From Planctomycetes bacterium UBA1146 (lineage in GTDB: Bacteria > Planctomycetota > UBA8108 > UBA1146), in assembly GCA_963854815.1 (NCBI GenBank), contig CAWLAN010000003.1, positions 1-38,957 of the forward strand: a stretch of 38,957 bases of DNA, in the 5' to 3' direction. Shown one piece after another: positions 22,976 to 32,461 of this stretch. Position numbers and translations under genes: made by a program. Position 1 is the stretch's first letter; each line of letters opens with the position of its first letter. The notes below the pieces were generated by a model. It saw only the letters and a program-made list of their open reading frames with translations. It had not been told where the DNA came from and made no database searches.

Positions 22976-24154
22976 TCAGCTTCCTTTCGGGCGGGTGAAT
23001 CTGTCTCGAACCAGTTCCAGGATGGAAACTGTCGCCTCCTCGACCCCCTTCTCATCGGCAAGCAATGCGCCGCCGATCAGCAGCATCGTATCGGACCCGA
23101 AGTCCTCGATCATCTCGGGGATCCTGTCGAGGCTCATGCCTCCGGCAGGAATCGCCCAACCCGGGGCGATGTGCCCCAGCGGTGCTCGCAGTTGCTCGGC
23201 GATCTGTCTTCCTTGCTCGCGGGTGGTAGAGAAGCGGCCTCCGGCGTTGACGAACACCGAGCCATCGAGCCCTGCCAATCGGGCCAGCGTACCATGCACG
23301 ATCGGCAGCGAGATGCCCCCGTCACGGTGAGCCGTCAGGACGCCGCTCATCGAGGGGTGCCCGATATGGACTCCTGGCCAGCGGGAAGTCAGCTCCCGAA
23401 CGCGGTCGAGACCGATGACCCAGGGTGCCATCAGAGCTCCATCGGCACCGGCTTCCAGTGCCACCTCCAGCCGCGCATCGAGTTCTTCGGCGGGAGCCAT
23501 CAGGTTGACCAGGTACAATACATGCCGATCTCCCTCGGTCTCTCTCACCGCCGCCGTGCAACGTTCGATTCGATCGCGAAAAGAAGCGAGGTCATCATCG
23601 AGCAGGTTGTGGTCGTCCTTGATCAGATCTCCGCCACCGGCAATGAAATCTCGACACACCTTGACCAGATCGGCCAGCGGAGCTCCCCTCGGCTTGAGGG
23701 CGGTCGCGACCAGCGGACGATCGTGAACTCCGGTGAGTTCTCTCACTCCGGAGATGCCGTGATTCGGTCCCGGGAAACCTCGCAGAACATCATCCGGGAG
23801 CCGCAGGCCGATGAGACGTACCCCCGGCATCATCGAACAGTTCCCCAGCAACAGATTGAGCCAGCGGGTCAGATCGGAGCCGGCCAGTTCCCCGGCGAAG
23901 GAGAGGGTCAACTGCTGGAGTCCAGGGGAGATCTCGTGCAGATCCTCGACCTTGGCGACGATCTCGCTCTCGATCCCCGGGTGGCGAGAGATGAGGGATT
24001 CCGGAACTTCTACCGTCAATTCGACGGCGATGGATCGTGCCATTGCAACAGAGCCATCTGTTGCAGACAGCACCCGATAGGTCGCTTCGATCCGTTCCAA
24101 GGTCACCTCTTCGAACCCGAATTTTCGTGAAGATCCCGGATCTCTCGCCCTCAT
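22976..24154 (-). CDS. RuBisCO-like protein (form IV), resembling the DeepYkr-type methylthioribulose-1-phosphate isomerase
   Basis: ALKPRG, GGDLIKDDH, HPSMSG, NAGGRF, PAGGM and LLIGGALL motifs; KDDH replaces the KDDE of true RuBisCO. Start may be GTG 24106 or TTG 24100. Confidence 0.88.
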   Translation of the reverse strand: MRARDPGSSRKFGFEEVTLERIEATYRVLSATDGSVAMARSIAVELTVEVPESLISRHPGIESEIVAKVEDLHEISPGLQQLTLSFAGELAGSDLTRWLNLLLGNCSMMPGVRLIGLRLPDDVLRGFPGPNHGISGVRELTGVHDRPLVATALKPRGAPLADLVKVCRDFIAGGGDLIKDDHNLLDDDLASFRDRIERCTAAVRETEGDRHVLYLVNLMAPAEELDARLEVALEAGADGALMAPWVIGLDRVRELTSRWPGVHIGHPSMSGVLTAHRDGGISLPIVHGTLARLAGLDGSVFVNAGGRFSTTREQGRQIAEQLRAPLGHIAPGWAIPAGGMSLDRIPEMIEDFGSDTMLLIGGALLADEKGVEEATVSILELVRDRFTRPKGS

Positions 24155-24275
24155 TGTCGGGTTCGCGGTATTCTGTCGGGGGCGAGAGTCAGTCGCTACC
24201 GATTACCGTCGGCCACTCTCGTGACAACGGGGACCCTGATCGGGGCTCGTGCCGATCCTGGACGGGAGTGTCTAG

Positions 24276-25310
24276 ATGAGCATTCGCGTAGGATTGATGG
24301 GCTTCGGTCGCATCGGTCGCAACGTATTTCGTGCCATCTACGGGCGAGATGATATCGAAATCGTGGCCATCAATGAACTGGCCGATATCGAGTCGATGGT
24401 TTACCTGCTGCGATTCGATTCGCTGCGGGGCCCCTTCGAGGAACCGATCCGCATCCTCGATGACGCCATCTACGCCAAGGGACGTCAGATACCCGTCATG
24501 CACCACCGCGAACCGGGGCAGATTCCCTGGTACGAGTATGGCGTCGACGTGGTCGTGGAAGCGACCGGAAAGTATCGCGCTCGTAACGACCTCGAAAAGC
24601 ACCTCGAACAGGGTGCCAACCGGGTCATCCTCACCACACCCCCCACCGACGATGTTGACCACCTGCATATCCGAGGAGTCACTCCCGACGAGGTGGACCG
24701 ATCGAACCGGATCATTTCGTGCGGATCGTCGACGGCGAATGCCACCGCACTGCTGGTCAAGGTGATCGATGACACCTTCGGAGTGGAGGAGGGCTCCTTC
24801 ACCTCGGTACACGCCTACACCGCCGACCAGAGTCTGACCGATGTTCCCACTTCGGGGGACCTGCGTAGATCCCGAGCCGCGATGCAGAACATCGTTCCCC
24901 AGACCACCTGGACCGATGAAGCCATCGAGGAACTGTTCCCGCACCTACGCGGTCGATTCAAGGGATTGAAACTGAACGTTCCCGTACCCGGTGTCTCCTG
25001 CAGTGACCTCACGGTTCAGACCAAAAGAACGGTCACCGCTGGCGAGGTGAATGAGGTGTTCCGCAGTGCTGCCGACAGCATCCACGATGGAATCCTCTCC
25101 TTCACCGATCAGCCCATCGTCTCCAGCGACATCGCAGGCAGCTCCGCATCGTGTGTTTTCGACAGTCTCGCCACCCTGGTCACCGACGACATCCTGCTGA
25201 AGGTGATCGGCTGGTACGAACAGGGAGGAGGGATCTCTCACCGGATCGTCGAACTGGCCACCCGGTTGGGACCGAAAGCCTCTAGCGGTGGGGAGAGGAA
25301 AAACCGATGA
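24276..25310 (+). CDS. GAPDH-family paralogue lacking the catalytic cysteine
   Basis: GFGRIGR, EATG, VHAYTADQ and DLRRSRAA are present, but the active site reads SCGSSTANA instead of SNASCTTNC, and WYEQG replaces WYDNE. Confidence 0.88.
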   Translation: MSIRVGLMGFGRIGRNVFRAIYGRDDIEIVAINELADIESMVYLLRFDSLRGPFEEPIRILDDAIYAKGRQIPVMHHREPGQIPWYEYGVDVVVEATGKYRARNDLEKHLEQGANRVILTTPPTDDVDHLHIRGVTPDEVDRSNRIISCGSSTANATALLVKVIDDTFGVEEGSFTSVHAYTADQSLTDVPTSGDLRRSRAAMQNIVPQTTWTDEAIEELFPHLRGRFKGLKLNVPVPGVSCSDLTVQTKRTVTAGEVNEVFRSAADSIHDGILSFTDQPIVSSDIAGSSASCVFDSLATLVTDDILLKVIGWYEQGGGISHRIVELATRLGPKASSGGERKNR

Positions 25311-26299
25311 AAGTTGCCATTAACGGTTTCGGACGCATCGGCCGCAGCGTGTTCCGGATCCTGACGGGACGCGATGACATCAATGTCGTCGCCATCAATG
25401 ACATCTCCGATCCTCACTCGCTGGCCTACTTACTGCGTTACGACTCCGTGATGGGGCCGTTCCCCGAACCGGTAACCCTTGACTCACTTACTCTCAGTGC
25501 AGGACGACAAAGTTGCCAGATGCTGGCCGAGAAGGATCCACAACAACTACCCTGGGAAGAACTGTCAGTTGATGTCGTCATCGAATCGACCGGCAGATTC
25601 CGAACTCGCGCTGAACTCGACATGCACCTCCAGGCCGGAGCGGGGAAAGTCATCCTTACGGTACCACCCAAAGATTCCGTCGACGCCCTGGTGGTGCTCG
25701 GTGTCAATGATGAGATCCTGGAGCCGAGCCATCGGATCATCTCAAATGCCTCCTGCACGACCAACTGTCTGGCTCCGCTGGTCAAGGTACTCGACGATTC
25801 TTTCGGACTGGTGCGTGGAGTGATGACCACGGTACACGCCTACACCAACGACCAGAGCCTGGCGGACTGGTATCACCAGGATCTGCGCCGATCTCGTGCA
25901 GCCGGGGAAAACACCATTCCCACCACGACCGGTGCCGCCCGCGCCGTCGGCGAGGTACTCCCTCAACTGGCCGGAAAACTGGACGGGATGGCGATGCGGG
26001 TTCCCGTCATCGACGGATCCGTGGTCGATCTGGTCGCCACCCTCGAGAAACCGGTCACCGTCGAGGACATCAACTCGGTGATGAAGGATAGTGCCGAGGG
26101 CCCGATGAAGGGAATCCTCGAGTATTGCACCGACCCGGTCGTCTCCTCCGATATCATCGGCAATCCCCATTCATCGATCTTCGACTCCCTGTTGACGATG
26201 ACGATCGGCACTCACGGTGCCAAGGTGCTGTCCTGGTACGACAACGAATGGGGATACTCGAGCCGGGTGGTGGATCTGATCGACCGGCTGCGGGACTGA
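25307..26299 (+). CDS. gap: Type I glyceraldehyde-3-phosphate dehydrogenase
   Basis: INGFGRIGR, SNASCTTNCLAP, TTTGAA and WYDNEWGYS motifs are all intact. Confidence 0.96.
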   Translation: MKVAINGFGRIGRSVFRILTGRDDINVVAINDISDPHSLAYLLRYDSVMGPFPEPVTLDSLTLSAGRQSCQMLAEKDPQQLPWEELSVDVVIESTGRFRTRAELDMHLQAGAGKVILTVPPKDSVDALVVLGVNDEILEPSHRIISNASCTTNCLAPLVKVLDDSFGLVRGVMTTVHAYTNDQSLADWYHQDLRRSRAAGENTIPTTTGAARAVGEVLPQLAGKLDGMAMRVPVIDGSVVDLVATLEKPVTVEDINSVMKDSAEGPMKGILEYCTDPVVSSDIIGNPHSSIFDSLLTMTIGTHGAKVLSWYDNEWGYSSRVVDLIDRLRD

Positions 26300-26318
26300 A
26301 GCGGGTGCATGAGAAACG

Positions 26319-26357
26319 AGAAGGGGCCCGGCGGGTGTTACCCGCCGGACCCCTTCT
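26319..26357. terminator. Probable bidirectional terminator hairpin between convergent genes
   Basis: AGAAGGGGCCCGGCGGGT-gtt-ACCCGCCGGACCCCTTCT; 17 of 18 positions pair. Confidence 0.7.
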
Positions 26358-26382
26358 TCACTGACCAGGCCTCGCCCCGGTT

Positions 26383-27378
26383 CTACAGGTACTTCTGAAT
26401 CTCTCCGAGGCGGATCTCTGCTTCACGCGCGGCTTCGGTACCGGAGTACCTCTTGGCCCTGGCAACGACGGCGTAGATCTTCGCCGCCTCCTCGTACTTG
26501 CCACGCTTTACCAGATCATGAGCCTCAGCCAGCATCTGTCCACCGGACATCTCGGCCTGAATCTTCTTGTCGCGCTTCCAGACCTTGAACTCCTTGTCGA
26601 ACTTCTTGGAGATGTCCATCCCCTTGAAGTCACGAATCCCTCGCTGAAGAGCTAACAGTCCCGTCTCGTACTGGCGCTTCTCCTTGAAGGTAGCGATGGC
26701 CGCGAACCGATCCTCGGAGAACTTGGTGATCTGTTCCATCGCTTCTCTGGCGGCATCCGCCACCGAAGCATCCTTGGCACGCTTGGCCTGCTTCTTCAGT
26801 TCACTGAAGGCCTTGCCGAACTGGCTCGCCTTGATGTACCTGGAGGCCTTGGACAGTTCCGACGGCAGGGAGATCTTCGGACCGACCCGCGCTCCGGCGA
26901 TGTGCTTCTCGATGATGGAGTTGTTCAGCCCTGCCGGGTGACCCTTCCAGACGATCTTCCCATTCGGTCCGACGAGCCAGGAATGCGGAATCCCGCGGGT
27001 CTTGTATTCGTTCGCACCGCCACCGTAGGCGATGGGGTACTTCATCTTGTTACGCTCGACGTAAGGCTTTGTCTTGGTTTCCGGTTCATCGGTGACCCCG
27101 ATGACGACCAGACCGCGCTCCCCGAACTCCTTATGAAGTTTGTTCAGGTGCGGGATCTGCCCTTTGCAAGGTCCTCACCATGTGGCCCATTTTTCGATCA
27201 GAATCAATTTTCCAGCGAGGGATTCCCAGGTCGTCGTTCCCTCGATGTTGATCCAGCCACCAGGCTTCATGGTAGGGGCAACATCCCCCACGGCAGAGCC
27301 TGCCAGGACCGGAAAACTCGCAAGCAAGCAGATGGCAACAATTGCCAGCCAACTGCGAGTTCGAACCTTGGTCAGCAT
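26383..27378 (-). CDS. Exported TlpA/ResA-like thiol-disulfide oxidoreductase, predicted selenoprotein (U68, UGPC motif), with a C-terminal helical/TPR-like domain
   Basis: ATG 27378 after GAAGGGAG; signal peptide; GKLILIEKWATW-TGA(27177-27175)-GPCKGQIPHLNKLHKEFGERGLVVIGV continues in frame into ORF 26383..27045 (GIPHSWLVGPNGKIVW). 331 aa when read through. Confidence 0.87.
27146..27174 (-). promoter_or_regulatory. Candidate bacterial SECIS hairpin of the TlpA-like gene
   Basis: mRNA after UGA reads GGACCU-UGC-aaa-GGG-[CAGAU]-CCC-GCA-CCU; the apical loop starts 16 nt after UGA. Weak, bulged stem, folded by eye. Confidence 0.45.
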
Positions 27379-27580
27379 TAGATTCTCCCTTCGAAACCGC
27401 CCCGGGCGGCTCCCGACATCCGTTGTCCTATTCTGATCTCGATCAGTACACAACGGAACGCCTCTTGGGGGTCCTTGCCCCTGTCGTGCCAAGTTATCGC
27501 GAACCGACCCGATCCGCAATATCATGGAAACGGTCCGGAAGGTGCCCCGGTTCCTTCAAAACCCCTGAACTCGCCGGGGG

Positions 27581-27609
27581 TTGCGGTTGAACGAGGAGGC
27601 TTCTAGCAT
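27581..27609 (+). promoter_or_regulatory. Putative sigma70 promoter for the first DUF1573-type gene
   Basis: TTGCGG-N17-TAGCAT. Confidence 0.4.
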
Positions 27610-27654
27610 CGATTTGTGATGTCGACCCGCCGATCAACAGGAATTGCCGCAACA

Positions 27655-28755
27655 ATGTCTCGATCCAGGTCCCTTTCGCTGCAGAACCGGCCATTGGCGT
27701 GGGTTCTGGCCATTTTCTTGGCTCAACTGTCAGTCGATGTGCCGCTATGTGGGCAAATCGATGACCCCCCGCTTCCGCTCTTGCCCGTTCCTGTCATCCA
27801 CATCGAGGAGATGGAACACGACTGGGGAAAAGTGCTCCAGGGAACCCGGGTGAAGCATATCTTTACCGTCGAGAACCGAGGCAAGGCGCCACTCAAGATT
27901 CTCAAGGTGTCATCCACCTGCGGTTGCACTTCGACTCGCTTCGACGAAGTGATCGAGCCAGGAGCCAGCGGAATCATCGAACTGCAGGTCGACACCACCG
28001 AATTCTCCGGAGGCAGACCGCGCAAGAATGCTGTCGTGAAAACCAACGATCCGGAACTCTCCGAGGTTCATCTGTGGATGGTTGGCCTGGTCGATCCACT
28101 CCTCCAGTTCGAGAGTTCGGTGTTCAAGCTGTCGGGTCTGGCGATGGAGAAGAAACAACTGAAAACCATCATCGTGCCAGCCGTGGAACTTCCCATCTCG
28201 CTGGTGCAAGCAAAATCGAAGAACGGATCATTTCTGGTCGCTGCTATCGAGTCTCTCGATAAGGGCTGGAAGTTGACTCTCACTGCGGATGTTTCCGAAC
28301 AGGTCAAGAGTCTCCGCGATGACCTGGAGCTGGTGGTTTCGATCGCTGATGGAAAACCCTTCACCATCCCGGTGCCGGTCGTGGTGGAACACAAGGACCG
28401 TATTCTCATGGTTCCGGCCGGGAATTTGATCTTCTACCGCCGTCATACCGCACCTCTCGATGGTCCGGTTCGTCGCGAAGTGGTGAAGGAAGTTCAGGTG
28501 CGCTCGGTGCGCGAGGACCTTCCCATTCTCGACTTCTCGGCAGAAATCATCGAAGCACCCGAGGGCCTGTTCGGCCTCAGGGTCATCGAAGTGATTCCAG
28601 GGCATCACTACAGGGTGCGCATCCAGGTGCTGCGAACCCTCCCCACTGCGCAGGGACGAGGGATCCTCCGGATGCGGCTCGGGCAAGGAAAAGACCAGGT
28701 GAGGGACAAGGGAGTCATCGCACAATTTCGGCTCAAACCGACCGATTCGCCCTAG
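27655..28755 (+). CDS. Exported DUF1573-type Ig-like domain protein (CGC motif), Cys paralogue
   Basis: HDWGKVLQG..HIFTVENRGKAPLKILKVSSTCGCT...IEPGASGII..K..VKTNDP pattern, followed by further beta-rich domains. Start may be 27616 or 27619. Confidence 0.82.
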   Translation: MSRSRSLSLQNRPLAWVLAIFLAQLSVDVPLCGQIDDPPLPLLPVPVIHIEEMEHDWGKVLQGTRVKHIFTVENRGKAPLKILKVSSTCGCTSTRFDEVIEPGASGIIELQVDTTEFSGGRPRKNAVVKTNDPELSEVHLWMVGLVDPLLQFESSVFKLSGLAMEKKQLKTIIVPAVELPISLVQAKSKNGSFLVAAIESLDKGWKLTLTADVSEQVKSLRDDLELVVSIADGKPFTIPVPVVVEHKDRILMVPAGNLIFYRRHTAPLDGPVRREVVKEVQVRSVREDLPILDFSAEIIEAPEGLFGLRVIEVIPGHHYRVRIQVLRTLPTAQGRGILRMRLGQGKDQVRDKGVIAQFRLKPTDSP

Positions 28756-28773
28756 TACGGTCCCTTTGTGGAC

Positions 28774-28801
28774 TTGACCTCATCGACGAATTCGATATCT
28801 T
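28774..28801 (+). promoter_or_regulatory. Putative sigma70 promoter for the second DUF1573-type gene
   Basis: TTGACC-N16-TATCTT; the spacer contains the dyad ATCGA-cgaat-TCGAT. Confidence 0.5.
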
Positions 28802-28859
28802 GGAAAATAGGCTCAAGTGGCCGCATCGCCTTGCCCCGATGAGAATCCCGATTCGGCCG

Positions 28860-28913
28860 GAACGGTCGATCCGAACGGTCGACTAGAACCGTAGACCCGT
28901 GCGAGAGGTAGAC
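28860..28913 (+). repeat. Short direct repeats with a 13-bp period in the leader of the UGA-containing DUF1573 gene
   Basis: GAACGGTCGAT (28860), GAACGGTCGAC (28873), GAACCGTAGAC (28886), plus a degenerate GAGAGGTAGAC (28903) overlapping the SD. Confidence 0.65.
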
Positions 28914-28918
28914 TCTCT

Positions 28919-30223
28919 GTGAAATACCGAAACATCCAGTTGCCGTTCGCCATGCTGGTACTACTGGTGCTTGCCGTTGCGCTACTACCGTTGTCCGGCT
29001 CGTTGAGTTTCGCCGCAGATGACGATCTCGGACCTCCACCGCCTCCCGCCCAGGAGGGACCTCGTATTCGTTTCGATAGCACCAGTTTCGACTGGGGTGA
29101 GGTGCTCCAGGGAGACAAGGTGGAACACACCTATCGATTCCACAACGTTGGAACTGGCATCCTTCGGATCACCCAGGTCAAGCCTGGCTGAGGTTGCGCT
29201 CGCGGGGCTTTTACCCGCGAGGTTCTCCCCGGAGGGGAGGGCGAAGTGACCCTCGTCGTCGACACCTCGAAACTGCGCACCGAAGCGGTGCGGAAGTACG
29301 CCACCGTCAGTTGCAACGACCCCCGACAGCCACAGATTCGCCTCACCGTCGGCGGAAAATTGCGCCATGTCGTCAAGGTGGAACCCGCCAGCCTCATCCT
29401 CAGAGGAGCCACCGGAGCTGATCTGGTCGGAAAATTGACCTTTTCGAAGGGGACAGATCTCGATATCACCGTCACAGGCGGTACAGCGGCGAAGAATCTG
29501 ATCTACGTCGGTGACATCGTGGAGATCTCTGCTGGTGAGAAGTACGAGATTCAGGTCGAAGCACCCAAGGCACTGGTTCCCGGGATGTTGCGTGACATTC
29601 TCAACGTGGAGATCGTCTGTAGTGACGGTGTGATTCGGACCACTTCGATTCCAGTGACCGTCGATCATCAGGCTCCGATCAGCGTCATTCCGCGCGGGAA
29701 TATCGTGTTCCAGCGCAAGGACACCGATCGCCTCAAGGTCGCGGGATCGGCGCCGGTGAAACGAGACCTGCAAATTTACTCCACCGCCCCGGGAACCCGG
29801 TTCAACATCACATCGATGACGATGGAAGGAACCCCCGAGAATCTATTTCGCCTCTCCCAGAGAGAGATTCGTTCAGGAGAACGCTATCTGGTGACGGTCG
29901 AGGTCACTGAACCACGTCCCGAGCGTTCGATCCGTGGAACCCTACGGATCCTCACCGATCACCCGGATATGCCGGAGGTCACCGCTCGAGTCTATGCTCA
30001 GTTCGGTGTTCCGACGCCGATTCGCCGGCCCGTAACGGTACCCGGCAAGAAGCCAGTTCCATCGCTCAAGGTGCCTGGCAAGAAGGCAACGGCTATCCCC
30101 GGAGTTCCCGGTATCCGGTTATCACCGACCGTGGACATCCCCTTCAAGCCGACTCCAAAACCGAAACCGAAACCGAAACCGGTCATACCCGACAAGCTGA
30201 ACTCCGGTCAGAAACCCGGGTAA
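28919..30223 (+). CDS. Exported DUF1573-type Ig-like domain protein, predicted selenoprotein (U91, UGC motif), with a Pro/Lys-rich tail
   Basis: ORFs 28919..29191 and 29246..30223 share a frame and are joined by one TGA (29189-29191): ITQVKPG-U-GCARGAFTREVLPGGEGEVTLVVDT. This aligns gap-free with ILKVSST-C-GCTSTRFDEVIEPGASGIIELQVDT of the upstream paralogue. 434 aa when read through. Confidence 0.85.
29199..29239 (+). promoter_or_regulatory. Candidate bacterial SECIS hairpin(s)
   Basis: Perfect 8-bp stem CUCGCGGG-[GCUUUUA]-CCCGCGAG (29199-29221), with the loop starting with G at +16 from UGA. A second hairpin CUCCCC-[GGA]-GGGGAG lies at 29225-29239. Confidence 0.65.
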
Positions 30224-30343
30224 TCAGCCCGACATCAGCGAGTTTTCAACGTTTCGGGGTATTTCCCCCGCCCTGGAAAATAAGATCTAGACGGTAGAGG
30301 GCACTGTTGGGGGGACATCTTTTGTCCGAAATCCGTATATTTT

Positions 30344-30564
30344 CGTAACATATTATAATAAAATGACTTACGATAGTTTCTGCGGTTCCTGAGCCAGCCC
30401 TGGTCCGCTCCCCCAAAAAAAACATGGAAATTTCTGCTGTGAAAACCTTGTTTGTAGGGCAGTCGATGTACGGCATCGCTTCAGGGCGTTGCCTTTTTTT
30501 GTGCCCGAATCCCCTTTTCGGCTCGGCTCATCACCCGTAACATCTTTATAAATAATAACTTATG
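30344..30564. repeat. Two 29-bp AT-rich imperfect dyad elements
   Basis: CGTAACATATTATAATAAAATGACTTACG (30344-30372) and CGTAACATCTTTATAAATAATAACTTATG (30536-30564); 21 of 29 positions identical. Confidence 0.7.
30472..30500 (+). terminator. Intrinsic terminator
   Basis: GGCATCGC-ttcagg-GCGTTGCC (one mismatch) followed by T7. Confidence 0.65.
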
Positions 30565-30697
30565 GAGATTCAGATGGGTCCGTGGACGATGCGGCCCGCC
30601 TCCGAAGGTACACGGGAGGCACAGGCGACCGCAGCCACCCTCCTCGACAAAGGCCCTGGCGGTCACTCGCTGCTGAGACCACCGCTATTTGCCCGTC

Positions 30698-32461
30698 CTA
30701 TTTGCCATCATTGCGCGAGAACTCGCCCGCCTTCAACTTGCGATCATATTCGCGCAACGAAGCGACCGCGATGTAACCGAGAGCCAGCACGATCGGAATA
30801 TTGACCACCAGCATCGATCCGGTGCCCAGGTCTGCCAGCAGCATCATCTGATCGGTGTTCTCGATCATCGCCGCACCGACGATCGCCAGCAGCAGGAAGG
30901 CAATCTTGTAGGGCAGAACCCCCCTCGCCCCGACCAGGAAGGCGACCCCCTTCTCGCCGTAGTAAGACCACGAGATCATCGTCGAGATGGCAAACAGCCA
31001 CGCCGCCAGGGTGACGAGCCACTTGCCCAGCCCCTCGAAGGCGCGATCGAAAGCGAAGGCGGTCAGTTGCGCTCCCTCGTATTCGCGGTAGATTCCCGCT
31101 CCGCCACCCTCCACCTCGAGAATTCGAATGTCACCAGGAATCCCGTCCCAGTCCGATGACTTCAGCTCGACATCCCCCCAGGAGATCACCAGAGTTACCG
31201 CCGCATCTGGATGTTCCGGGTCTGGCACTTCGTCGATCACTCCGGTGATCTTGAACCGGTTGGAACCGGTCGAGCGATGTGTCATTCCCTGCGCTTCTGC
31301 CAGCACGAAGAGTTTGTCGCCATGGGACCACTGGTCGAGCCTTTGTTCGGGAAGATGTGACACCGTCGCCGCCGTGACGACAATGTATTCATCACCCTCG
31401 CCAGCAGCTGCCAGACTGATCTCCGTCGCCAGAGGACCGATGGAATCCCGGTTCCAGGTTCCAGTCGAGAGGATCACCATCGCGGTCAGGGTGCAGATAC
31501 AGATGGTGTCGATGAAGGGTCCAAGACCACCGACGACCCCCTCACGGGCGGGTTCTGCCGTCTTGGCGGCAGCATGAGCGATCGGAGCCGACCCCTGGCC
31601 CGCTTCGTTGGAGAAGAGAGCCCGTTTCATCCCCACCACAAAGGCGTAACCAAGAGTTCCGCCGATGAAAGCCCCCTCGGCTTCAGCACTACCAAAGGCA
31701 CTATCGAAGACCAGTTTCAGTAGCCCCGGAATCTGGTCCGCGTTCACCACCAGCACGGCAAAACCAGCTATCAGGTACAGAAGACACATCAACGGCACCA
31801 GTTTTGACGCCACCGTCCCGATGCGCTTGATGCCACCGATGATCACCAGCCCGACCAGCATCGCCAGGATGATCCCGGTCGCTACCTTCGGCACGCCAAA
31901 GTAACCCTCGGTCAGTCCCGCCACGTTCCAGGCCTGGAACATGTTGCCGCCGGTGATGGTCGAGATGATGAGAGTGATGCAGAAGAAACCTCCGATGATC
32001 GAGCCGAACACCGCCCAGCCGCTACCCTTCTTGGCCAGAACCTGCTTCACGACATGCATCGCACCACCACTGGGGTTGTCCGGATCGGTTGTGTCTCGAT
32101 AGATCATCGCCAACGTGATCTCGATCGTCTTCAACGCCATGCCGAAGAAACCGACCACCCACATCCAGAACAGGGCGCCGGGACCACCGACCGAAATCGC
32201 CACCGCCACTCCACCGATGTTGCCGAGTCCGACGGTCGCTGATAACGCCGCCGACAGTGCCTGAAAGTGATTGATGGCACCGGGATCATCGGGGTCGTCG
32301 TAGATACCCCGGACCACCGCCAGGCCATGTGTCATCACCCGGTACTGGGTGAAGCGGGTCCACACAGTGAACAGAACCCCGGCCCCGAGCAGCGCCACGA
32401 ACGTGGGTGTACTCCAGATCCACTCGCCGATCAGTTCGATCCAATGCCAGAAGAGATCCAA
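30698..32461 (-). CDS. Alanine/glycine:cation symporter (AGCS family) with a large loop insertion
   Basis: FQALSAALSATVGLGNIGGVA, GGPGALFWMW, KRALFSNEAGQGSAPIAH, FIDTICICTLT and FAISTMISWSYYGE motifs. TTG start 32461 follows a purine-rich SD; the ORF track starts at 32491. Confidence 0.93.
   Translation of the reverse strand: MDLFWHWIELIGEWIWSTPTFVALLGAGVLFTVWTRFTQYRVMTHGLAVVRGIYDDPDDPGAINHFQALSAALSATVGLGNIGGVAVAISVGGPGALFWMWVVGFFGMALKTIEITLAMIYRDTTDPDNPSGGAMHVVKQVLAKKGSGWAVFGSIIGGFFCITLIISTITGGNMFQAWNVAGLTEGYFGVPKVATGIILAMLVGLVIIGGIKRIGTVASKLVPLMCLLYLIAGFAVLVVNADQIPGLLKLVFDSAFGSAEAEGAFIGGTLGYAFVVGMKRALFSNEAGQGSAPIAHAAAKTAEPAREGVVGGLGPFIDTICICTLTAMVILSTGTWNRDSIGPLATEISLAAAGEGDEYIVVTAATVSHLPEQRLDQWSHGDKLFVLAEAQGMTHRSTGSNRFKITGVIDEVPDPEHPDAAVTLVISWGDVELKSSDWDGIPGDIRILEVEGGGAGIYREYEGAQLTAFAFDRAFEGLGKWLVTLAAWLFAISTMISWSYYGEKGVAFLVGARGVLPYKIAFLLLAIVGAAMIENTDQMMLLADLGTGSMLVVNIPIVLALGYIAVASLREYDRKLKAGEFSRNDGK

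Follow-up and report, generated by a model that had tools for sequence, protein, structure and literature searches.

A gene split at a UGA codon in a marine planctomycete is predicted to encode a selenocysteine-containing DUF1573 protein of the known OS_HP2 family

In the stretch of Planctomycetes bacterium UBA1146 DNA analysed here (38,957 nucleotides (nt); assembly GCA_963854815.1, contig CAWLAN010000003.1, positions 1 to 38,957 of the forward strand; hereafter the window), the open reading frame (ORF) at 28919-30223, which we call Sec1, is very probably a single gene that carries selenocysteine (Sec, U) at residue 91 and belongs to the known OS_HP2/DUF1573 selenoprotein family. Gene callers cut Sec1 in two, and the rejoined frame is predicted to encode a real selenocysteine-containing protein. 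We read the locus as one gene with Sec decoding because of the sequence itself, its comparison with relatives and the presence of the Sec machinery in the genome. This high confidence covers the single gene, Sec at U91 and the known family; the function proposed further below lies outside it. The two central features are as follows.

28919..30223, plus strand: Sec1, predicted selenocysteine-containing DUF1573 protein gene, 434 amino acids (aa), U91, GTG start, TAA stop.
29189..29191, plus strand: UGA predicted to be read as selenocysteine (U91), the first residue of U-G-C, with an aligned TGA in 21/21 family orthologues.

Under translation table 11 the locus appears as a 90-aa ORF (28919..29191) and a 325-aa ORF (29246..30223) in the same frame, and with the TGA read as U the frame is open for 434 aa, with U91 as its single odd codon. 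Reading through TGA in the wrong frames of the region meets 4-20 such codons in each, whereas the three genes in question contain exactly one TGA each, at columns aligned with cysteine (Cys). The motif codons TGA-GGT-TGC occupy 29189-29197 on the plus strand, and TGC-GGT-TGC lies 1270 nt upstream at 27919-27927, within a tandem paralogue that we call Cys1. A BLASTP alignment of the read-through product with Cys1 extends over 295 residues with 28% identity, an E of 1e-33 and 2 gaps; neither gap falls near the motif, and PGUGC of Sec1 therefore pairs with STCGC of Cys1 column for column. The original prediction had taken the locus for a hidden selenoprotein gene whose DUF1573-type domain carries U-G-C, matched its TGA codon to the TGC of the neighbouring paralogue, and taken that paralogue as an internal Cys-homologue control. 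All three proposals hold up, given the single in-frame TGA, a Pfam PF07610 match that runs across it, the retention of the TGA in orthologues, and the pairing of C-G-C with U-G-C.

To follow the codon through relatives, the read-through protein was used as the query against its own genome and 40 relatives, and the codon aligned with U91 was located in every locus fetched. A Sec1 orthologue was present in 21/24 genomes of the same family, ranging from 97% down to 45% identity (BLASTP), and all 21 carry TGA at the U91 column, so that other DUF1573 genes do have the aligned TGA that had been suggested as a check; this query recovered no Sec1 orthologue in the remaining three (G008, G010 and G014). 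The nearest relatives in other families of the order carry either TGC (three loci, L041-L043) or TGA (L044 and L045). Every paralogue row lacking TGA (29/29) has TGC or TGT (TGY), and across all 55 rows the U91 column is either TGA (26) or TGY (29). Three more metagenome runs of seawater or marine origin (X2, X3 and X4), drawn from three studies, contain contigs in which the codon at 29189-29191 is likewise unchanged. X3 and X4 differ elsewhere and are therefore other strains, and the near-identical X2 contig may represent the source sample. The TGA is thus not peculiar to this assembly. Named genome records with Sec1 orthologues are marine Planctomycetota metagenome-assembled genomes (MAGs). 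One locus titled 'Bacillota bacterium' (L064, QNYK01000070.1) contains a planctomycete-type cluster with a Sec1 orthologue 67% identical over the best segment and an adjacent gene for a Sec-containing redoxin, and its bin label is probably wrong.

The encoded protein is divided as follows.

28919..29014, plus strand: predicted signal peptide, residues 1-32 (KYR, a hydrophobic core and SFA-A), read by eye.
29066..29365, plus strand: domain 1, DUF1573, an immunoglobulin-like (Ig-like) beta sandwich, residues 50-149, from the AlphaFold2 model and Pfam.
29372..30001, plus strand: domains 2 and 3, Ig-like beta sandwiches, residues 152-251 and 254-361, from the model and tandem Ig-like Foldseek matches.
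30002..30220, plus strand: Pro/Lys-rich disordered tail, residues 362-434, from the predicted local distance difference test (pLDDT, 46-76) and the sequence.

The PF07610 (DUF1573) match of Sec1 scores 61.2 bits against a gathering threshold of 26.1, covers residues 50-146 and profile positions 1-96 of 98, and crosses the TGA; Cys1 matches the same profile at 63.0 bits. An AlphaFold2 model built on 39 homologues has a mean pLDDT of 85.5 and a predicted template modelling score (pTM) of 0.65, with low pLDDT in the N-terminal helix at residues 10-20. In domain 1 of this model, U91-G92-C93 forms the turn between strands 82-89 and 93-98. Since the Pfam and NCBIfam matches and the modelled sandwich all span the TGA, each half of the split gene alone would be half a domain. 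The 39-sequence alignment has only five invariant columns, namely G65, N76, U/C91, C93 and G146. Structural searches added little: the Foldseek hits in the PDB were tandem Ig-like arrays of a generic kind (ciliary central-apparatus proteins, cadherins and titin) together with 2qsv and gave no functional lead, a PDB sequence search with the single Sec1 protein found nothing relevant, and a PDB search with the 39-homologue profile found 2qsv alone, an uncharacterised Porphyromonas gingivalis protein (E 9.7e-07). The corresponding position of 2qsv has no CxC, so the motif is not represented among solved structures.

Downstream of the UGA lie two abutting stem-loops, which together form a putative selenocysteine insertion sequence (SECIS).

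29199..29221, plus strand: SECIS hairpin 1, CUCGCGGG / CCCGCGAG, 8-bp stem with a 7-nt loop GCUUUUA, starting 7 nt after the UGA.
29222..29242, plus strand: SECIS hairpin 2, abutting hairpin 1, 9-bp stem with loop GGA, its core CCCCGGAGGGG at 29227-29237, 38 nt from the T of TGA.

The perfect 8-bp hairpin that had been noticed behind the TGA is thus present, as hairpin 1, and it is more than a chance structure: the 71-nt stretch holding both hairpins folds at -37.2 kcal/mol (z = -2.90), a stability reached in 0/200 shuffles. Within the same family the 57 nt after the codon fold at a mean of -27.7 kcal/mol in Sec forms (n=21) versus -19.0 kcal/mol in Cys forms (n=29), a comparison in which the Sec forms are somewhat richer in G+C (0.70 vs 0.62) and the rows are kin, so that its p-value exaggerates the difference. 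A core CCCCGGNGGGG is positioned at precisely +38 nt, counted from the T of TGA, in 24/26 TGA rows (25 when one U-G wobble is allowed) and in 0/29 TGY rows, and several Cys forms encode the same peptide, PGGEG, by other codons and without this core, a pattern that ties the downstream stem-loop to the UGA rather than to the encoded peptide. The 2.7-Mb genome contains six copies of the CCCCGGNGGGG core, two of which are those at +38 of its two Sec-type DUF1573 genes. Hairpin 2 is near-invariant (CUCCCC-GGN-GGGGAG) at a fixed distance and is common to both Sec paralogue groups and a member from Acidobacteriota; when 20 distinct Sec-form sequences are aligned without gaps, 97.2% of its cells are paired, with changes on both sides at two pairs. 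When the hairpin 1 site is folded singly, every distant orthologue forms a hairpin there, with other letters and in a shifted register.

The canonical bacterial SECIS is one hairpin with G in the first positions of an apical loop that lies ~16-37 nt after the UGA. The element described here resembles it, as exemplified by Escherichia coli fdhF, in being an in-frame stem-loop a few nucleotides after the UGA with G residues in the apical loop. It differs in consisting of two abutting hairpins, of which the first varies in sequence and register and the second is near-invariant at a fixed distance. The loop of hairpin 1 lies 15 nt after the UGA, at about the usual distance, and has G as its first letter in the present sequence, and it is unconserved among orthologues.

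The Acidobacteriota member (L075 2941-4233, in MAG JBBISU010000049.1) is a Sec-type DUF1573 protein of 430 aa, about the length of the Sec1 protein, with R-P-S-U-G-C at its motif. Its genome is A+T-rich and the gene carries the same two G+C-rich hairpins, which places the Sec form and its SECIS in a second phylum as well. The flanking genes, read from translations, are lipoyl-synthase-like and amine-oxidase-like.

The genome (2.7 Mb in 232 contigs, 88.4% complete) contains tRNA-Sec, which scores 67.9 bits against a gathering score of 47 and has the anticodon tca by ARAGORN, along with selA (510.9 bits), selB (378.3 bits) and selD (339.6 bits, with one in-frame TGA), all four above their family cut-offs; judged by this gene content, the organism should be able to read UGA as Sec. 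The genes for tRNA-Sec, selD (its in-frame TGA within C-A-G-U-A-S) and selA adjoin on one strand of contig C13 (6008-8659), and selB lies on contig C42.

Sec1 is a planctomycete member of a family catalogued since 2007, and the family itself is not new. NCBIfam NF041425, "OS_HP2 family (seleno)protein", is the best and sole NCBIfam match of Sec1 and is matched by 39/39 aligned homologues (best E 1.1e-33). Sec1 has the features by which the literature defines the OS_HP2/DUF1573 selenoprotein, with U-x-C (here UGC) inside the pfam07610 domain and Cys homologues at the same column. In their accessible text, Zhang & Gladyshev 2007 include OS_HP2 among six new families (PMC1976440), the 2008 Global Ocean Sampling (GOS) survey lists "OS_HP2, pfam07610, UxC" with 2 selenoproteins and 354 Cys homologues (PMC2398784), and reviews of 2022 and 2026 list DUF1573 (PF07610) with UGC as a selenoprotein family (PMC9312934, PMC13188914). 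Checking the selenoprotein catalogues for a prior description, as had been recommended, hence yields one (PMC1976440, PMC2398784, NF041425). As far as the accessible parts of these sources go, Sec1 shares with the family the PF07610 domain, Sec as the first residue of U-x-C, a stable stem-loop after the UGA and many Cys homologues with C-G-C at the same column, and the family's function is unknown there too (PMC1976440, PMC2398784, NF041425). According to the same portions, OS_HP2 was first reported from Olavius deltaproteobacterial symbionts and ocean reads, whereas the host here belongs to an uncultured marine Planctomycetota lineage. The use of Sec in Planctomycetes is likewise already on record in the accessible text of PMC4807772. 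The Sec1 protein itself has three Ig-like domains and a Pro/Lys tail.

What this analysis possibly adds is the split public records, the two-hairpin SECIS and a conserved three-gene cluster described below. The cluster with its Sec-redoxin and the fixed hairpin 2 may be modest new leads: the accessible main text of the DUF1573, OS_HP2 and planctomycete selenoproteome literature searched, supplements excepted, mentions neither. Planctomycete or multi-domain DUF1573 selenoproteins may already be shown in the S9 Table of PMC4807772 and the alignment figures of PMC1976440.

Two other readings of the in-frame TGA have to be weighed against Sec decoding. If the TGA were a true stop, the locus would be a split or decaying gene that yields only the 90-aa product, the 325-aa product from GTG 29246, or both, as public annotations assume. 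Gene callers do report the downstream piece alone, and the close public homologues, 19/19 of them (261-336 aa, named, where a name is given, "hypothetical protein [Planctomycetota bacterium]"), begin after the TGA. However, decay would not hold a TGA at one column down to 45% identity, the protein sequence is conserved on both sides of the codon, the TGA-linked hairpins are missing from Cys forms, the Sec machinery is complete, and either piece alone would, by the model, be a broken beta sandwich, all of which leaves a true stop very improbable. A changed genetic code, in which every TGA of the organism would specify a standard amino acid, would likewise leave the frame open on read-through, but it fits neither the single TGA per gene at Cys-aligned columns against 4-20 in wrong frames, nor the lack of an internal TGA in most paralogues, nor the presence of tRNA-Sec, selA, selB and selD, and can practically be dismissed.

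Several observations nevertheless count against reading Sec1 as one Sec-decoded gene of the OS_HP2/DUF1573 family. No RNA run containing the region 27400-30400 was listed. In fixed register, 71.9% of hairpin 1 cells are paired among the same 20 Sec-form sequences, and the invariant GGN loop of hairpin 2 lies ~39 nt after the UGA, beyond the spacing usual for bacterial SECIS elements. An Rfam scan of 26000-31000 (E up to 10) returned no SECIS family, with chance-level weak matches only. The NF041425 score of Sec1 (94.9 bits, E 2.9e-27, profile positions 3-97 of 98, with C in place of U) falls just under the curated cut-off of 100, and Cys1 scores 92.7 bits. Finally, the relatives compared are kin, and their counts overstate the independent support.

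Two further genes of interest lie upstream of Sec1.

27616..28755, plus strand: Cys1, tandem DUF1573 paralogue, 379 aa, with C-G-C at codons 27919-27927.
26383..27378, minus strand: predicted exported thioredoxin-like redoxin, W-U-G-P-C with U68, TGA at 27175-27177, the divergent neighbour.

The redoxin gene is predicted to be a second hidden selenoprotein gene with its TGA at a Cys column. Table 11 splits it into ORFs of 116 aa and 220 aa, and the read-through product has the motif W-A-T-W-U-G-P-C, matches Pfam AhpC-TSA (55.9 bits), Redoxin (41.2 bits) and also Thioredoxin, and carries a helical C-terminal extension of ~170 aa. It was found in 21/24 family relatives, with one TGA in 21/21, and also in many genomes beyond. 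In 18/24 family relatives the genes for the redoxin, Cys1 and Sec1 stand next to one another on a single contig, and in three more contig ends interrupt the set; the surroundings of the trio are unrelated housekeeping genes for GAPDH, a RuBisCO-like protein, an Na:Ala symporter and a pyridoxal phosphate (PLP) enzyme. A wider rule that a redoxin stands beside DUF1573 was considered and set aside. A redoxin-like ORF occurs in the flanks of 42/80 DUF1573 loci from named genomes, made up of 18 planctomycete orthologous loci and 24 from closely related Weeksellaceae, in which the redoxin is convergent and lies past a yajC-like gene, with the DUF1573 gene behind a nusB-like gene by our reading, and the Weeksellaceae amount to at most one weak extra lineage.

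The searchable literature gives no function for DUF1573. U/C91 and C93 are among the five invariant columns of the 39 homologues, a Sec-thioredoxin-like gene is conserved nearby, and it is plausible that the CxC is redox-active or metal-binding, as the original prediction proposed. Selenocysteine generally sits in redox sites. We consider it about an even prospect that U91 and C93 are a redox-active selenol/thiol pair, which outside the cytoplasm would close into a selenylsulfide, and that the protein works together with Cys1 and the Sec-redoxin. UGA 29189 is very probably decoded as selenocysteine, aided by the two-hairpin SECIS that begins 7 nt downstream, and the 434-aa product, with its predicted signal peptide, three Ig-like domains and Pro/Lys-rich tail, is probably exported, as its N-terminus read by eye suggests. 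The U-G-C would then be presented in a beta-turn of the first (DUF1573) domain, as modelled, where U91 and C93 could cycle between the selenol/thiol state and a selenylsulfide ring outside the cytoplasm. The role of the neighbouring Sec-containing TlpA-like redoxin (W-U-G-P-C) would be to hold the motif in its reduced state or supply it with electrons, with the Cys paralogue as another component distinct from Sec1.

This proposal is reminiscent of two known systems. Like the periplasmic thiol:disulfide oxidoreductases of the TlpA/ResA type, the redoxin is a putative exported thioredoxin-fold protein with W-x-x-W-[U/C]-x-P-C, and it adjoins two putatively exported two-chalcogen proteins; unlike them, it carries Sec where the first Cys would be and is extended at the C-terminus by ~170 helical aa, and its presumed clients would be Ig-like DUF1573 proteins rather than Sco, CoxB or cytochrome c. 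A pair of this CXC type may form a strained ring or serve as a metal ligand. As in known CXC redox motifs, such as the C-G-C peptide that mimics protein disulfide isomerase and the CXC of the copper chaperone CCS, the chalcogen pair is separated by one residue, here Gly, in what the model gives as an exposed turn, but the first of the two is Sec, and an Ig-like sandwich carries the pair.

The functional proposal has its own weak points. No redoxin stands beside the two other paralogues in the genome, Sec2 and Cys2, or beside the Acidobacteriota Sec form, and the argument for redox activity is built entirely from gene neighbourhood, motif invariance and the rule that Sec sits in redox sites.

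The main functional rival, which concerns the proposed function and leaves Sec decoding untouched, is that U-G-C and C-G-C, borne by an exported Ig-like carrier, are a binding site for a soft metal (for example Cu(I), Hg or Zn), with the redoxin merely keeping the ligands reduced. TlpA keeps the copper-site cysteines of ScoI and CoxB reduced, and the cluster with a TlpA-like redoxin fits either reading. Two invariant chalcogen ligands two residues apart in a modelled exposed turn would suit a metal, CxC binds metals in other proteins, and the accessible parts of selenoprotein catalogue tables include several metal-handling families. However, the invariant or nearly invariant columns of domain 1 include no further conserved His, Met or Cys, and the genes nearby (those for GAPDH, the RuBisCO-like protein, the Na:Ala symporter and the PLP enzyme) include no metal transporter or chaperone, so we hold a metal site to be a doubtful but serious competitor of the redox pair.

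A further possibility concerns Cys1, which the original prediction had imagined as one arm of a Cys/Sec switch operated through a separate promoter. Cys1 would then be a selenium-independent spare of Sec1, switched by selenium supply as in the Sec/Cys isoenzyme pairs of methanogens. A Cys form and a Sec form of one domain family do stand adjacent, 163 nt apart, with one promoter-like site between them (28774-28801), and differentially expressed pairs exist, fmdB being an example in the accessible text of PMC4807772. Yet the two proteins share only 28% identity, Cys1 falls in its own clade with support 99 and lacks the Pro/Lys tail, both genes are kept adjacent in 18/24 family relatives, and the promoter scan is at chance level (3 found vs 2.0 +/- 1.6 expected). 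Terminator-like sites were likewise at chance level (5 found vs 4.7 expected), with none between the genes, and the intergenic stretch 28740-28925 folds no better than shuffles (z -0.23). The tree was used for the separation of the Cys1 clade alone, as several long branches leave its deep nodes unsure; its SEC group comprises 21 true rows, since L025_1750_2883 has TGC as its motif codon (and a TGA near its 3' end), which makes a count of 5 label changes one too many. The low identity, the separate clades and the joint retention together suggest that Sec1 and Cys1 are ancient paralogues and two different parts rather than a gene and its spare; a selenium-controlled switch is improbable, and that part of the prediction is not supported.

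The genome contains four paralogues in all: Sec1, Cys1, Sec2 (contig C21) and Cys2 (contig C119). Sec2 (C21:18882-19922, plus strand; L129 4616-5944) is a Sec-type DUF1573 gene with V-N-G-T-U-G-C and the CCCCGGNGGGG core 38 nt after its TGA; one neighbouring gene encodes a cadherin-like/Big_9 protein (at least 1493 aa), the other a protein with FG-GAP repeats, and orthologues with one TGA occur in most relatives. Cys2 is flanked by a PDZ/DUF6288 protein and an S41 peptidase, and neither set of neighbours hints at redox chemistry.

Other observations in the window concern the surroundings of the cluster. Just after the redoxin gene, at 26319-26357 on the minus strand, lies a strong terminator-like hairpin of 18 pairs (13 G-C) with a T-rich tail and a weak, chance-level Rfam match to CsrC. 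The region 22979-26296 holds a RuBisCO large-chain-like gene (67 bits), probably that of a RuBisCO-like protein; after it, on the opposite strand, come two GAPDH genes in tandem, with a 4-nt overlap between their ORFs. The intergenic region after Sec1 is unusually A+T-rich for the genome and contains two similar words, seen by eye, at 30344-30372 and 30536-30565 (CGTAACAT..TT.ATAA..AA..ACTTA), ~190 nt apart, with a terminator-like hairpin at 30483-30495 between them.

For annotation, these results mean that the gene of this lineage is wrongly split in every public record found (19/19), so that the selenoproteomes of these ocean bacteria are being undercounted. For the recoding field, hairpin 2, tied to the TGA and constant in its spacing, makes a tidy natural test case for the question of which element SelB recognises. 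The large DUF1573 family has no assigned function, and Sec at one of two invariant Cys positions, next to a gene for a Sec-thioredoxin-like protein, is the best available hint that its CxC turn is chemically active, a hint that yields a testable protein pair. A more tentative thought, which we rate well below an even chance, is that the trio is an undescribed extracytoplasmic selenol/thiol relay of marine Planctomycetota with a redox-active DUF1573, and that hairpin 2 is a family-specific SECIS module kept across phyla. If true, the relay would give the widespread DUF1573 domain its first mechanism.

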